Origin: a virus
Taxonomy: Duplodnaviria; Heunggongvirae; Uroviricota; Caudoviricetes
Direction: 5' to 3' (one strand)
IMG/VR virus record: IMGVR_UViG_2597490224_000003
Length of the DNA: 6,313 nucleotides
The translations under genes and the position numbers were made by a program. The notes beneath the pieces were generated by a model, which was not told where the DNA came from, did not search any database, and saw only the letters and a program-made list of their open reading frames with translations. Positions 1-6,313 of the stretch are shown piece after piece; the stretch's first letter is position 1, and every line of letters begins with the position of its first letter.

Positions 1-264
1 TCTTATATAGCAGAAGACGGTATCGAAAAACGTTATCTTCCAGATGGCATGCTGGTTCTGGGGAATACTGCTGCAGATGGGATCCGTTGTTACGGTGCCA
101 TTCAGGATGCTCAGGCGTTGTCCGAAGGTGTGGTGGCCTCTTCCCGTTATCCGAAACACTGGCTGACGGTAGGGGATCCCGCCCGTGAATTTACCATGAC
201 GCAGTCCGCGCCGCTGATGGTGTTGCCGGACCCGGATGAGTTTGTGGTGGTACAGGTGAAATAA
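1..264 (+). CDS. E: Major capsid protein, C-terminal fragment (lambda gpE-like); 5' end lies upstream of the window
   Basis: Frame 1 is open from nt 1 with no in-frame stop until TAA at 262-264; the listed ORF 49..264 is only the part after the first Met. Position immediately upstream of FI/FII/Z matches lambda gene order. Sequence-level resemblance to lambda gpE C-terminus is from memory and unverified. Confidence 0.75.
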   Translation, partial: SYIAEDGIEKRYLPDGMLVLGNTAADGIRCYGAIQDAQALSEGVVASSRYPKHWLTVGDPAREFTMTQSAPLMVLPDPDEFVVVQVK

Positions 265-272
265 TCCGTGAG

Positions 273-302
273 CGGGGGCGAAATGCCCCCGTGTCTTTTT
301 TC
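273..302 (+). terminator. Intrinsic-terminator-like hairpin plus T-run just downstream of the capsid gene stop
   Basis: Read directly: CGGGGGC (273-279), loop GAAAT (280-284), GCCCCCG (285-291), a perfect 7-bp GC-rich stem, followed by TGTCTTTTTTC (292-302). Function not verified; could equally be an mRNA-stability or attenuating element. Confidence 0.4.
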
Positions 303-315
303 ACAGGGGGCTGAT

Positions 316-690
316 ATGGCAACGAAAGAGCAAAATCTGAAACGGCTTGATGAACTGGCCCTGATTCTGGGGCGTGAGCCGGATATATCCGGGAGTGCCG
401 CAGAGATAGCGCAGCGGGTGGCAGAATGGGAAGAGGAAATGCAGTCATCCGGCGATGATGTACAGGTTATGAATATGGATATCCGGGAGCGGGAAACCGC
501 GGCTCATGATGTTCGTGAGGAAACATCCGGCGCGTTAACGCGCATCAGAGTTCTGACCTGCCTCCATCTCTGTGGCGTTGATGGTGAAACGGGGGAATCC
601 GTTGAGCTTGCGGATGTTGGTCGGGTGATTCTGATTATGTCCTCAGATGCAAAAACACACGTTGATGGTGGAATGGCTGTTTATGCGTGA
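316..690 (+). CDS. Head assembly / DNA-packaging accessory protein, gpFI-like (124 aa)
   Basis: ATG at 316 preceded by purine-rich CAGGGGG; the ORF-track start at 268 lies inside the terminator hairpin and is unlikely. Sits between capsid gene and FII as in lambda; size similar to lambda FI (132 aa). Stop TGA 688-690 overlaps the FII start (ATGCGTGA). Sequence is diverged from what I recall of lambda FI, so the call rests mainly on synteny. Confidence 0.6.
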   Translation: MATKEQNLKRLDELALILGREPDISGSAAEIAQRVAEWEEEMQSSGDDVQVMNMDIRERETAAHDVREETSGALTRIRVLTCLHLCGVDGETGESVELADVGRVILIMSSDAKTHVDGGMAVYA

Positions 691-1036
691 TTTTCAGAAT
701 GCCTTTGATGCCGCCCTTGCCGGGGTGGACAGTACGATTGTTGAAGTGATGGGCATCAGTGCGCAGTTCACCTCCGGTGCACAGCGTGGCGGCGAGGTTC
801 ATGGCGTTTTTGACGATCCGGAGTCGCTGGGTTTTGCCAGTAGTGGGATCCGTATTGAAGGAAGTAACCCGTCATTATTTGTGCTTACGGATACGGTTTG
901 TGCTGTACGGCGTGGTGACACGCTGACCATTAACGGCGAGATGTTCTGGGTGGACCGTGTTTCTCCGGATGACGGAGGGAGTTGTTATCTCTGGCTCAAC
1001 CGGGGGCAACCACCTGCCGCCAGCCGTCGCCGCTGA
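683..1036 (+). CDS. FII: Head-tail joining protein gpFII (117 aa)
   Basis: Product from the ATG at 683 (MRDFQNAFDAAL...GVFDDPE...GDTLTI...FWVDRVSPDDGGSC...) closely resembles lambda gpFII as I recall it, including the conserved C-terminal ...WVDRVSPDDGGSC.LWL.RG.PPA..RRR; same length as lambda FII. The ORF-track start at 647 is upstream of the homologous N-terminus and overlaps FI. Confidence 0.85.
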   Translation: MRDFQNAFDAALAGVDSTIVEVMGISAQFTSGAQRGGEVHGVFDDPESLGFASSGIRIEGSNPSLFVLTDTVCAVRRGDTLTINGEMFWVDRVSPDDGGSCYLWLNRGQPPAASRRR

Positions 1037-1047
1037 AAGGGGGATGT

Positions 1048-1626
1048 ATGGCCATAAAAGGTCTTGAGCAGGCCGTTGAAAACCTCAGCCGTATCAGCAA
1101 AACGGCAGTGCCTGGTGCCGCCGCAATGGCCATTAACCGCGTTGCTTCATCCGCGATATCGCAGTCGGCGTCACTGGTTGCCCGTGAGACAAAGGTACGC
1201 CGGAAACTGGTAAAGGAAAGGGCCAGGCTGAAAAGGGCCACGGTCAAAAATCCGCAGGCCAGAATCAAAGTTAACCGGGGGGATTTGCCCGTAATCAGGC
1301 TGGGTAACGCGCGGGTTGTCCTGTCCCGACGCAGGCGTCGTAAAAAGGGGCAGCGTTCATCCCTGAAAGGTGGCGGCAGCGTGCTTGTGGTGGGAAACCG
1401 TCGTATTCCCGGCGCGTTTATTCAGCAACTGAAAAATGGCCGGTGGCATGTCATGCAGCGTGTGGCCGGGAAAAACCGTTACCCCATTGATGTGGTGAAA
1501 ATCCCGATGGCGGTGCCGCTGACCACGGCGTTTAAACAGAATATTGAGCGGATACGGCGTGAGCGTCTTCCGAAAGAGCTGGGCTATGCGCTGCAGCATC
1601 AACTGAGAATGGTAATAAAGCGATGA
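1048..1626 (+). CDS. Z: Tail completion protein gpZ (192 aa)
   Basis: ATG at 1048 preceded by AAAGGGGGA; product MAIKGLEQAVENLSRISKTAVPGAAAMAINRVASSAISQSA... matches lambda gpZ in sequence and length as I recall it. The ORF-track start at 982 is an in-frame upstream extension. Confidence 0.9.
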   Translation: MAIKGLEQAVENLSRISKTAVPGAAAMAINRVASSAISQSASLVARETKVRRKLVKERARLKRATVKNPQARIKVNRGDLPVIRLGNARVVLSRRRRRKKGQRSSLKGGGSVLVVGNRRIPGAFIQQLKNGRWHVMQRVAGKNRYPIDVVKIPMAVPLTTAFKQNIERIRRERLPKELGYALQHQLRMVIKR

Positions 1627-2018
1627 AACATACTGAACTCCGTGCAGCCGTACTGGATGCACTGGAGAAGCATGACACCGGGGCGACGCTTTTTGATGGT
1701 CGCCCTGCTGTTTTTGATGAGGAAGATTTTCCGGCAATTGCCGTTTATCTCACCGGCGCTGAATACACGGGCGAAGAGCTGGACAGCGATACCTGGCAGG
1801 CGGAGCTGCATATTGAAGTTTTCCTGCCTGCTCAGGTGCCGGATTCAGAGCTGGATTCGTGGATGGAGTCCCGGATTTATCCGGTGATGAGCGATATCCC
1901 GGCACTGTCAGATTTGATCACCAGTATGGTGGCCAGTGGCTATGACTACCGGCGCGACGATGATGCGGGCCTGTGGAGTTCAGCCGATCTGACTTATGTC
2001 ATTACCTATGAAATGTGA
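1623..2018 (+). CDS. U: Tail terminator protein gpU (131 aa)
   Basis: ATGA start/stop overlap with Z (U ATG 1623-1625, Z TGA 1624-1626). Product [54 protein letters not shown]... matches lambda gpU; length identical to lambda. Confidence 0.9.
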
Positions 2019-2025
2019 GGACGAT

Positions 2026-2766
2026 ATGCCAACACCAAATCCTCTGGCACCGGTGAAAGGGGCCGGGACCACACTGTGGGTTTATAACGGGAGCGGCGAC
2101 CCTTATGCAAACCCGCTTTCAGACAATGACTGGTCGCGTCTGGCAAAAATTAAAGACCTGACGCCCGGCGAACTGACCGCTGAGTCCTATGACGACAGTT
2201 ATCTCGATGATGAAGATGCGGACTGGACCGCGACCGGGCAGGGGCAGAAATCCGCCGGAGATACCAGCTTCACGCTGGCGTGGATGCCCGGAGAGCAGGG
2301 GCAGCAGGCGCTGCTGGCGTGGTTTAATGAAGGTGATACCCGTGCCTATAAAATCCGCTTCCCGAACGGCACGGTCGATGTGTTCCGCGGCTGGGTCAGC
2401 AGTATCGGTAAGGCGGTGACGGCGAAGGAAGTGATCACCCGTACGGTGAAGGTCACCAATGTGGGCCGTCCGTCAATGGCAGAAGATCGCAGTACGGTGA
2501 CGGCGGCAACCGGTATGACCGTGACGCCTGCCAGCTCCTCGGTGGTGAAAGGGCAGAGCACCACGCTGACCGTGGCCTTCCAGCCGGAGGGCGCAACTGA
2601 CAAGAGCTTCCGTGCGGTGTCAGCGGATAAAACAAAAGCCACCGTGTCGGTCAGTGGTATGACCATCACCGAGAACGGCGTTGCTGCAGGCAAGGTCAAC
2701 ATTCCGGTTGTATCCGGTAATGGTGAACTTGCTGCGGTTGCAGAAATCACTGTCACCGACAGTTAA
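2026..2766 (+). CDS. V: Major tail tube protein gpV (246 aa) with C-terminal Ig-like domain
   Basis: ATG at 2026 preceded by GAGGACGAT; product [33 protein letters not shown]...[20 protein letters not shown]... matches lambda gpV; length 246 aa as in lambda. The C-terminal ~90 aa ([32 protein letters not shown]...EITVTDS) is the Ig-like decoration domain. The ORF-track start at 1996 overlaps U and is not used. Confidence 0.92.
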
Positions 2767-2781
2767 TCCGGAGAGTCAGCG

Positions 2782-3204
2782 ATGTTCCTGAAAACCGAAT
2801 CATTTGAACATAACGGCGTGACCGTCACGCTTTCTGAACTGTCAGCCCTGCAGCGTATTGAGCATCTCGCCCTGATGAAACAGCAGGCAGAACAGGCGGA
2901 GTCAGACAGCAACCGGCAGGTTACTGTGGAAGACGCCATCAGAACCGGTGCTTTTGTGGTGGCGATGTCCCTGTGGCATAACCATCCGCAGAAGACAAAG
3001 CAGCCTTCCATGAATGAAGCCGTTAAACAGATTGAGCAGGAAGTGCTTACCACCTGGCCCGCGGAGGCAATTTCTCATGCTGAAAACGTGGTGTACCGGC
3101 TGTCCGGTATGTATGGGTTTGTGGTGAATGATGCCCCTGACCAGGCAGAGGACTCCGGGCCTGCAGAGCCTGTTTCTGCGGGAAAGTGTTCGACGGTGAG
3201 CTGA
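2782..3204 (+). CDS. G: Tail assembly chaperone gpG (140 aa, zero-frame product)
   Basis: ATG at 2782 preceded by GGAGAG; product MFLKTESFEHNGVTVTLSELSALQRIEHLALMKQQAEQAESD... matches lambda gpG; slippery heptamer near the 3' end; stop TGA 3202-3204. Confidence 0.9.
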   Translation: MFLKTESFEHNGVTVTLSELSALQRIEHLALMKQQAEQAESDSNRQVTVEDAIRTGAFVVAMSLWHNHPQKTKQPSMNEAVKQIEQEVLTTWPAEAISHAENVVYRLSGMYGFVVNDAPDQAEDSGPAEPVSAGKCSTVS

Positions 3205-3620
3205 GTTTTGCCCTGAAACTGGCGCGAGAGATGGGGCGACCTGACTGGCGCGCCATGCTTGCCGGGATGTCATCCACGGAGTATGCCGACTGGCACCGCT
3301 TTTACAGTACCCATTATTTTCATGATGTTCTGCTGGATATGCACTTTTCCGGGCTGACGTACACTGTGCTCAGCCTGTTTTTCAGCGATCCGGATATGCA
3401 TCCGCTGGATTTCAGTTTGCTGAACCGGCGTGAGGATGACGAAGAGCCTGAAGATGATGTGCTGATGCAGAAAGCGGCAGGGCTTACCGGAGGCGTCCGC
3501 TTTGGCCCGGACGGGAATGAAGTTATCCCCGCTTCCCCGGATATGGCGGGCATGACGGAGGATGACGTAATGCTGATGACAGTATCAGAAGGGATCGCAG
3601 GAGGAGTCCGGTATGGCTGA
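2782..3620 (+). CDS. T: Tail assembly chaperone gpG-T fusion made by -1 programmed ribosomal frameshift at 3180-3186, continuing in the -1 frame to TGA 3618-3620
   Basis: The -1 frame downstream of the slippery site is open to 3620 (ORF-track 3186..3620, ...SFALKLAREMGRPDWRAMLAGMSSTEYADWHRFY...). The G/G-T arrangement is the established lambda paradigm. The exact junction codon is approximate. Confidence 0.85.
3180..3186 (+). promoter_or_regulatory. -1 programmed ribosomal frameshift slippery heptamer G GGA AAG
   Basis: GGGAAAG read directly; in the G frame the codons are GCG|GGA|AAG (3178-3186), matching the X XXY YYZ pattern. Same heptamer as the lambda G/T site. Confidence 0.85.
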
Positions 3621-6239
3621 ACCGGTAGGCGATCTGGTCGTTGATTTAAGTCTGGATGCGGCCAGATTTGACGAGCAGATGGCCAGAGTCAGGCGTCATT
3701 TTTCCGGAACGGAAAGTGATGCGAAAAAAACAGCGGCAGTCGTTNNNNNNNNNNCAGGCGTCATTTTTCCGGTACGGAAAGTGATGCGAAAAAAACAGCG
3801 GCAGTCGTTGAACAGTCGCTGAGCCGACAGGCGCTGGCTGCACAGAAAGCGGGGATTTCCGTCGGGCAGTATAAAGCCGCCATGCGTATGCTGCCTGCAC
3901 AGTTCACCGACGTGGCCACGCAGCTTGCAGGCGGGCAAAGCCCGTGGCTGATCCTGCTGCAACAGGGTGGTCAGGTTAAGGACTCCTTCGGCGGGATGAT
4001 CCCCATGTTCCGGGGGCTTGCCGGTGCGATCACCCTGCCGATGGTCGGGGCCACCTCGCTGGCGGTGGCGACCGGTGCGCTGGCGTATGCCTGGTATCAG
4101 GGTAACTCAACCCTGTCCGATTTCAACAAAACGCTGGTCCTTTCCGGCAATCAGTCGGGTCTGACGGCAGATCGTATGCTGGTCCTGTCCAGAGCCGGGC
4201 AGGCGGCAGGGCTGACGTTTAACCAGACCAGCGAGTCACTCAGCGCACTGGTTAAGGCGGGAGTAAGCGGTGAGGCTCAGATTGCATCCATCAGCCAGAG
4301 TGTGGCGCGTTTCTCCTCTGCATCCGGCGTGGAGGTGGACAAGGTCGCTGAAGCCTTCGGGAAGCTGACCACTGACCCGACGTCGGGGCTGACGGCGATG
4401 GCGCGCCAGTTCCATAACGTAACGGCGGAGCAGATTGCGTATGTTGCTCAGTTGCAGCGTTCCGGCGATGAATCCGGGGCATTGCAGGCGGCGAACGAGG
4501 CCGCAACGAAAGGGTTTGATGACCAGACCCGACGCCTGAAAGAGAACATGGGCACGCTGGAAACCTGGGCAGACAGGACAGCACGGGCATTCAAATCCAT
4601 GTGGGATGCGGTGCTGGATATTGGTCGTCCTGATACCGCTCAGGAGATGCTGATTAAGGCAGAGGCTGCGTTTAAGAAAGCGGACGACATCTGGAATCTG
4701 CGCAAGGATGATTATTTTGTTAACGATGAAGCGCGGGCGCGTTACTGGGATGATCGTGAAAAGGCCCGTCTTGCGCTTGAAGCCGCCCGAAAGAAGGCTG
4801 AACAGCAGAGTCAACAGGACAAAAATGCGCAGCAGCAGAGCGATACCGAAGCATCACGGCTGAAATATACCGAAGAGGCGCAGAAGGCTTACGAACGGCT
4901 GCAGACACCGCTGGAGAAATATACCGCCCGTCAGGAAGAACTGAACAAGGCACTGAAAGACGGGAAAATCCTGCAGGCAGATTACAACACGCTGATGGCG
5001 GCGGCGAAAAAGGATTATGAAGCGACGCTGAAAAAGCCGAAACAGTCCGGCGTGAAGGTGTCTGCGGGCGATCGTCAGGAAGACAGTGCTCATGCTGCCC
5101 TGCTGACGCTTCAGGCTGAACTCCGGACGCTGGAGAAGCATGCCGGAGCAAATGAGAAAATCAGCCAGCAGCGCCGGGATTTGTGGAAGGCGGAGAGTCA
5201 GTTCGCGGTACTGGAGGAGGCGGCGCAACGTCGCCAGCTGTCTGCACAGGAGAAATCCCTGCTGGCGCATAAAGATGAGACGCTGGAGTACAAACGCCAG
5301 CTGGCTGCACTTGGCGACAAGGTTACGTATCAGGAGCGCCTGAACGCGCTGGCGCAGCAGGCGGATAAATTCGCACAGCAGCAACGGGCAAAACGGGCCG
5401 CTATTGATGCGAAAAGCCGGGGGCTGACTGACCGGCAGGCAGAACGGGAAGCCACGGAACAGCGCCTGAAGGAACAGTATGGCGATAATCCTCTGGCGCT
5501 GAATAACGTCATGTCAGAGCAGAAAAAGACCAGGGCGGCTGAAGACCTGCTTCGCGGGAACTGGATGGCAGGCCTGAAGTCCGGCTGGAGTGAGTGGGAA
5601 GAGAGTGCCACGGACAGTATGTCGCAGGTTAAAAGTGCTGCCACGCAGACCTTTGATGGTATTGCGCAGAATATGGCGGCGATGCTGACCGGCAGTGAAC
5701 AGAACTGGCGCAGCTTCACCCGTTCCGTGCTGTCCATGATGACAGAAATTCTGCTTAAGCAGGCAATGGTGGGGATTGTCGGGAGTATCGGCAGCGCTAT
5801 TGGCGGGGCTGTTGGTGGCGGCGCATCCGCGTCAGGCGGTACAGCCATTCAGGCCGCTGCGGCGAAACTCCATTTTGCAACCGGAGGATTTACGGGAACC
5901 GGCGGCAAATATGAGCCAGCGGGGATTGTTCACCGTGGTGAATTTGTCTTCACGAAGGAGGCAACCAGCCGGATTGGCGTGGGAAATCTCTACCGGCTGA
6001 TGCGCGGCTATGCCACCGGCGGTTATGTCGGTGGCACCGGAAGTCCGGCGCAAATGCGGCGTTCAGAGGGTATCAGGTTTGAGCAGAACAACAACGTGGT
6101 GATTCAGAACGACGGTACGAATGGTCTGCCAGGTCCACAGATGATGAAGGCGGTGTATGACATGGCCCGCAAGGGTGCCCGTGATGAAATCCAGGCACAG
6201 ATGCGCGATGGTGGTCTGTTCTCCGGAGGTGGACGATGA
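3613..6239 (+). CDS. H: Tail tape measure protein gpH; reading frame artificially broken by an N-run plus duplicated flank (3745-3809); intact length would be 853 aa
   Basis: ATG at 3613 overlaps the T stop (ATGGCTGA). N-terminal MAEPVGDLVVDLSLDAARFDEQMARVRRHFSGTESDAKKTAAVV matches lambda gpH. After the gap the same protein continues in another frame (RRHFSGTESDAKKTAAVVEQSLSRQALAAQKAGISVGQYKAAMRMLPAQFTDVATQ...) through the 785-aa ORF to TGA 6237-6239. Removing the 65 nt at 3745-3809 gives 2562 nt = 853 codons plus stop, the lambda H length. Coiled-coil-like A/Q/E/K/R-rich middle and Gly-rich hydrophobic C-terminal segment are typical of tape measure proteins. Confidence 0.9.
3690..3809 (+). 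repeat. 55-nt direct duplication flanking the N-gap (copy 1 3690-3744, copy 2 3755-3809; 54/55 identical); most likely unmerged overlapping contig ends
   Basis: Copy 1 CAGGCGTCATTTTTCCGGAACGGAAAGTGATGCGAAAAAAACAGCGGCAGTCGTT versus copy 2 CAGGCGTCATTTTTCCGGTACGGAAAGTGATGCGAAAAAAACAGCGGCAGTCGTT; single difference A (3708) versus T (3773). Both copies encode the same peptide RRHFSGTESDAKKTAAVV. Confidence 0.85.
3745..3754. other. Assembly gap (10 N) inside the tape measure gene
   Basis: Ten consecutive N characters read directly in the sequence. Confidence 0.98.
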
Positions 6240-6313
6240 AAACCTTCCGCTGGAAAGTGAAACCCGGGATGGATGTGACATCGGCTCCTTCCGTCAGGGA
6301 GGTGCGCTTTGGT
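6236..6313 (+). CDS. M: Minor tail protein gpM, N-terminal fragment (continues beyond window)
   Basis: ATGA overlap with the H stop (M ATG 6236-6238, H TGA 6237-6239). Translation MKTFRWKVKPGMDVTSAPSVREVRFG matches the lambda gpM N-terminus as I recall it; frame is open to the window end. Confidence 0.8.
   Translation, partial: MKTFRWKVKPGMDVTSAPSVREVRFG

Follow-up and report, generated by a model that had tools for sequence, protein, structure and literature searches.

The window analyzed here, a stretch of 6,313 nt (IMG/VR record IMGVR_UViG_2597490224_000003; Caudoviricetes), appears to be a segment of a phage-21-type lambdoid prophage of Escherichia coli, colinear with that phage over the head-completion and tail genes. 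Relative to lambda this segment is a mosaic, in which two modules of different history are joined at nt 1024–1028, inside the 3' end of FII, probably through homology-guided exchange. The left module (E-FI-FII) very probably diverged from that of lambda long ago, and the right module (Z through M) was shared with lambda far more recently. The joint itself is ordinary; it is an already known and widespread feature of phage 21-type prophages, and is best regarded as an old joint that separates the phage 21 lineage from lambda.

Gene content and relation to phage 21

Based on its open reading frames and Pfam matches, the + strand of the window is a contiguous late-gene block that extends from the 3' end of E through the start of M (Table 1), and the gene order is the same as in lambda. 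In a profile search, the products of E through H all exceed the curated cut-off of the expected Pfam family; the FII product, for example, scores 58.6 bits against PF05354 (cut-off 26) and covers positions 3–96 of the 99 in the profile. The T frame is expressed as a G-T frameshift fusion in both lambda and phage 21, and a joined G-T CDS is annotated at the corresponding place in the latter. The window contains the slippery heptamer GGGAAAG at 3180, inside the G/T overlap, as a G-T programmed −1 frameshift signal.

Table 1. Coordinates of the genes, blocks, and local features of the window (nt; strand given where it applies)
Feature	Coordinates	Strand	Basis or remarks
E (major capsid) 3' end, phage-21 type	1–264	+	PF03864 Phage_cap_E; 0 mismatches to phage 21
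FI (DNA packaging protein), phage-21 type	316–690	+	PF14000 Packaging_FI; start agrees with the phage 21 annotation
FII (head-tail joining/stopper protein), phage-21 type, 117 aa	683–1036	+	PF05354 Phage_attach
Z (tail completion protein)	1048–1626	+	PF06763 Minor_tail_Z
U (tail terminator, FII partner)	1623–2018	+	PF06141 Phage_tail_U
V (major tail tube protein, C-terminal Ig-like domain)	2026–2766	+	PF16461 Phage_TTP_12 and PF02368 Big_2
G (tape-measure chaperone)	2782–3204	+	PF06894 Phage_TAC_2
T reading frame	3186–3620	+	PF06223 Phage_tail_T
H (tape measure protein), 853 aa after artefact removal	3613–6239	+	PF06791 TMP_2 and PF09718 Tape_meas_lam_C
M (tail tip protein) 5' end	6236–6313	+	likeness to lambda M; phage 21 annotation
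Lambda-diverged block, head-completion side	1–1023		35–72% nt identity to lambda per 100-nt bin; 0 mismatches to phage 21
Lambda-like tail block, continuing beyond the window end	1024–6313		97.9% nt identity over 1024–2000; 93–100% per bin beyond, except two dips
Change point, mosaic joint relative to lambda	1024–1028		maximum likelihood; FII codons 114–116
Assembly artefact	3745–3809		10 N (3745–3754), then a second copy (3755–3809) of the 55 nt at 3690–3744
Small in-frame patch in H (codons 786–823), a second mosaic segment relative to lambda	6033–6146	+	dS 1.14, dN 0.49

A megablast search against phage records retrieved phage 21 (OL657228), PhiR63_2, PhiR57_1, and ev017 at 99.6–99.7% identity over 100% of the window. 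Phage 21, which belongs to the genus Jouyvirus, has the same gene order and the same gene lengths (E-FI-FII-Z-U-V-G-T-H-M) and is colinear with the window, with 18 mismatches in 6248 ungapped positions once the assembly artefact is removed. None of these falls in 1–1332; they are scattered substitutions, most of them in H (5243–5868). Some E. coli prophages are nearer still. Among complete genomes, 216 records match the whole window at 99% identity or more, and chromosomal prophages of several human E. coli isolates are 100.0% identical to it. With a probe across the joint (600–1450), 228 records reach 99% identity or more, among them the type strain DSM 30083, which matches at 100%. The E. 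coli genomes that match, roughly 3,700 in number, do so at a median of two places, and at up to ten.

Phage 21 and complete E. coli genomes have this very joint, which means that the window is no new recombinant. The sequence-only reading had proposed that uniform identity to a single other phage would overturn its mosaic interpretation. Such uniform identity was literally found, in phage 21 (99.7% over the window), yet the mosaic relation to lambda stands, and the comparison had been badly framed. The lambda/21 head-versus-tail mosaic is a long-known case of lambdoid modularity. The sequence of the phage 21 head genes was reportedly described by Smith and Feiss in 1993 (Gene), and M81255 is presumably their head-gene fragment. 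The phage 21 genome was published in 2022, long after fragments of it, M81255 among them, had been deposited, and the genome announcement does not discuss the joint (PMC9119081). The correct annotation of the window is a phage-21-type prophage segment that has head-completion genes of the 21 lineage and lambda-like tail genes, and its significance extends little beyond this.

Besides the substitutions, the window differs from phage 21 by the assembly artefact in H. The two 55-nt copies differ at one position, A at 3708 and T at 3773, where phage 21 has T. Deleting 65 nt yields a sequence of 6248 nt that is colinear with phage 21, and this is exactly the length spanned by the E. coli prophage matches; the deletion also restores an H gene of 853 codons. 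The stretch 3745–3809 is a scaffold join of two overlapping contigs, and the 69-aa and 785-aa H fragments in the open reading frame list are artefacts. The apparent split of the tape-measure gene is not biology.

Position and strength of the joint

For comparison with lambda, the window was aligned with J02459 as the reference, and H was compared after the artefact had been collapsed. Nucleotide identity per 100-nt bin is 0.35–0.72 up to nt 1000 and 0.93–1.00 later, with dips at 2001–2100 and 6001–6300. On the head side, the C-terminus of the E product is identical to lambda gpE at 55 of 82 residues (67%), the FI product is only 24% identical in a gapped alignment, and the FII product, which comprises 117 aa in both phages and aligns without gaps, is identical at 75/115 residues (65%). 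The sequence-only reading had described FII as homologous but substituted throughout, and FI and the capsid C-terminus as diverged; these descriptions hold, and both FII peptides that it quoted are correct. It had also called the Z, U, V, G, T, and M products and the N-terminal part of the H product nearly identical to those of lambda. This is accurate for Z (190/192 aa, 99.0%), U (127/131, 96.9%), V (235/246, 95.5%), T (140/144, 97.2%), and H as a whole (825/853, 96.7%), but somewhat generous for G (128/140, 91.4%), for codons 786–823 of H, and for M, in which 23 of the 26 visible residues match.

We located the joint with a two-rate change-point model applied to the series of mismatches to lambda over 683–2000, the window and lambda being gap-free from FII onward. 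The likelihood is highest for a change at nt 1024 (2-lnL interval, 1024–1028). Identity to lambda is 62% to the left of this point, within FII, and 97.9% to the right of it; mismatches are clustered up to 1023 and then absent until 1107. The log-likelihood ratio is 139.5, compared to a maximum of 7.7 among 500 permutations, so the drop at 1024 is real and far beyond chance. The joint thus lies within the last four codons of FII, 10–13 nt upstream of the stop codon (1034–1036) and 20–24 nt upstream of the Z ATG at 1048, just before the Z ribosome-binding site. With the joint in this position, the lambda-like block opens with the translation-initiation region of Z. A promoter and terminator scan of 1–1300 gave no signal at the joint, and the number of hits was about that expected from shuffled sequence; a stem-loop flagged by the same scan at 960–980 has a weak tail.

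The sharp drop in sliding identity that had been anticipated upstream of about nt 1040 was therefore found. The boundary itself had been placed at about 1036–1048, between FII and Z; a mosaic joint relative to lambda does adjoin that boundary, but the change point is 12 nt to the left of 1036, inside FII and not in the FII-Z spacer. Among junctions between lambdoid modules, this one is a clean textbook case, placed to within 5 nt and backed at synonymous sites.

A secondary step is seen at nt 908, where identity goes from 56% to 75%. Since the megablast hits to lambda start at this position, the step was evaluated as a possible second joint or even the actual one. Its log-likelihood ratio (6.4) is below the permutation maximum of 7.7. 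It was ruled out because synonymous divergence from lambda is still high to its right (dS ~1.0 in FII codons 76–113) and amino acid identity there is 31/38. The rise in nucleotide identity after 908 is attributable to conservation of the C-terminal part of FII as a protein, not to recent ancestry.

Synonymous divergence from lambda was measured by Nei-Gojobori estimates. In FII codons 1–75 it is saturated (pS 0.80), while beyond the joint dS is 0.07 in Z, 0.06 in U, 0.09 in G, 0.08 in T, and 0.07 in H codons 1–785. The codons themselves follow the same pattern: where the residue is the same as in lambda, 18 of 31 codons are also identical in FII codons 76–113, compared to 180 of 190 in Z. A step in dS from saturation or ~1.0 to 0.07 implies different histories on the two sides of the joint, and not different constraint on the proteins.

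Block combinations around FII in related phages

To place the joint among its relatives, the window was aligned with lambda, phage 21, Lambda_4C10, D2, and PhiR12_2. The blocks to the left and right of 1024 are found in several different pairings, a hallmark of modular exchange.

D2 (OM475427) matches the window at 100% as far as 665 and lambda at 100% over all the remainder, from 667 on, so that 21-type E and FI are joined to lambda-type FII through M. This is a natural pairing of a 21-type head with a lambda-type FII. The D2 joint (665/667) is at the 3' end of FI, at the FI/FII border, and is out of register with lambda FI; as a result, D2 FI gains a new C-terminal tail, ...HVDNNGRRCG, read from the lambda FI-FII spacer. 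Lambda_4C10 (LR595861) contains 21-type E and FI at 100% and a 21-type FII, with no mismatches to the window through 1029, after which identity is 97.8% (change point 1030, interval 935–1030). Among the tail positions that distinguish the window from lambda, 132 carry the lambda base in 4C10, 69 carry that of the window, and 5 carry neither; a further 78 substitutions are found in 4C10 alone. These mixed affinities, together with its private substitutions, indicate that 4C10 carries a third tail variant. Moreover, 4C10 and D2 place this head type in other genera, such as Bievrevirus.

PhiR12_2 (PV340550) has a 21-like E and FII (~89%) and a different type of tail (74%; its Z is 534 nt long), with a change near 1015 (interval 975–1021). 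In positions 283–699 of its aligned segment (about 400–680 of the window), the central and 3' parts of FI are unrelated (37–53% nt identity), while the flanking E and FII are 84–97% identical. An unrelated FI between matching flanks implies that FI is itself a small exchangeable cassette.

In these sequenced phages, both borders of FII are used as joints. The 4C10 and PhiR12_2 changes would be compatible with re-use of the exact joint site of the window, given their wide intervals (935–1030 and 975–1021). A more far-reaching scenario is that both FII borders (~665 and ~1015–1030) are preferred recombination sites beyond what selection tolerates as joints, that FII is a 'swing' adaptor traveling with either the head or the tail module, and that short conserved sequences around the translation-initiation regions of FII and Z might act as the linkers through which lambdoid prophages in the same host undergo homology-guided exchange; in our estimate this is quite doubtful. 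With joints on both sides of FII, the FI-FII-Z region would be well suited to studying the reassortment of head and tail modules at the population scale.

The position of FII in the virion provides a context for these joints. In the lambda virion, gpFII bridges the head and the tail: the gpW barrel is bound at its N-terminal helix, and the gpU ring is contacted by its hairpin (residues 46–62) and its C-terminal loop (PMC10721106). By homology and by reference to this structure, the FII protein of the window is predicted to join gpW-capped heads to gpU-terminated tails, and a structural rationale for a cut after FII is plausible. We also considered whether conservation of FII tracks the domains that contact head or tail, but there is no clean fit: identity to lambda is 57% in the N-terminal helix, 47% in the gpU-inserting hairpin, 78% in the C-terminal sandwich, and 70% in the C-terminal loop, and the hairpin has the 47% value even though U is 97% identical. 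In the 21-type arrangement, FI and FII overlap by 8 nt at 683–690 (ATGCGTGA), whereas in lambda the two genes are 11 nt apart and FII starts with GTG. The two head types would thus differ in translational coupling.

Origin of the joint

We propose that homologous or homeologous recombination formed the joint, through an in-register crossover between FII alleles that were diverged but could still be aligned. The catalysts would be RecA and the Rad52-like recombinases of phages, acting on co-resident lambdoid prophages and on infecting phages. Since FII connects the head to the tail, the product would remain viable: a cut immediately downstream of this gene, or immediately upstream of it in the case of D2, would leave the head set and the tail set each intact. 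This agrees with the description of the head and tail genes of lambdoid phages as separate, co-transferred modules (PMC9836094).

Homology-guided exchange is the mechanism that we consider probable. FII has 117 codons in both types, the alignment is gapless, and the joint is in register, which favors a homology-guided crossover over random end joining; likewise, the median of two matching places per matching E. coli genome implies that recombination partners coexist. Experiments have shown that short, diverged homology is enough for Rad52-like phage recombinases and RecA to produce mosaics of lambda with resident prophages, and that mosaic formation depends on the recombinase (PMC3945230). The two FII types are ~75% identical just to the left of the joint, with short exact runs, and are more diverged than the 12% tested in that study.

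Alternatively, the joint may have arisen by illegitimate, non-homologous joining at a random position and been retained since only joints at or near gene borders are viable, as in Hendrix-type models. The location of the joint no more than 13 nt from the end of a gene and the low identity to its left (56–75%) are in keeping with such an event, and the out-of-register joint of D2, with its new FI tail, is the signature expected of non-homologous or microhomology joining. However, the window joint preserves register exactly between homologues of 117 codons that align without gaps, an outcome that would be unlikely for a random position, and although the debate is described as open in PMC3945230, illegitimate events were rare in the recombinase-dependent experiments of that study. 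We consider illegitimate joining possible but unlikely as the source of the window joint.

It is hardly tenable that there was no recombination and that the head-completion genes simply evolve much faster than the tail genes within one lineage. The small size of FI and FII and the known variability of FI, which differs in PhiR12_2 too, would speak for such a rate difference, but the fall in synonymous divergence is more than 10-fold within ~25 nt across the joint, and D2, 4C10, and PhiR12_2 hold other combinations of the blocks at 100% identity to one or the other parent; both observations refute rate variation. Based on the synonymous step and on these alternative gene combinations, we take the joint to reflect recombination. 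An origin of the joint in chimeric assembly, or in a recombination event confined to this sample, is next to impossible. The window does contain a scaffold gap of 10 N followed by a duplicated overlap of 55 nt, and the median of two matching places per E. coli genome could mislead an assembler. But the scaffold join is 2.7 kb from the joint, and the same joint is found in ev017, PhiR63_2, and PhiR57_1, in the genome of phage 21 virions, and at 100% in complete E. coli chromosomes, which refutes this explanation.

Recombination between modules thus remains the preferred reading, and the interpretation of the window as a case of modular lambdoid mosaicism, as the sequence-only reading had suggested, is borne out by the abrupt step in identity, the matching step in dS, the other block combinations in D2, 4C10, and PhiR12_2, and the location at a gene border. 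Abrupt change at a gene border, separate head and tail modules, and alternative combinations all fit the general pattern for lambdoid phages, from which nothing in the window departs; the joint lies 13 nt inside FII and not in the intergenic spacer.

Three further local features were observed. Within the tail block, the dS of V (0.175) exceeds the 0.06–0.09 of its neighbors, and substitutions are clustered in the N-terminal part of its product (residues 3, 7, 8, 21, 34, and 42; 2026–2160). These hint at a further small exchange at V, which would lie inside the tail block. The second feature is the patch in H (Table 1), which is located inside a gene that is otherwise 97–99% identical to that of lambda; dS relative to lambda is 0.07 upstream of the patch and 0.15 downstream. 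Lambdoid phages contain several allele classes of this patch (100, 97, 87, 83, and 79% identity). PhiR49_1 shares the allele of the window, and its match to the window begins only at nt 908.

The third feature is a GC-rich stem-loop at 272–292 (GCGGGGGCGAAATGCCCCCGT) followed by a T run (272–302 in all), directly after the stop codon of E, with a folding energy of −19.8 kcal/mol (z −3.6). At the equivalent place after E, lambda has a hairpin of different sequence (GGCCCTTCGGGGCC, then a T-rich stretch), and a conserved structural element between E and FI is suggested.
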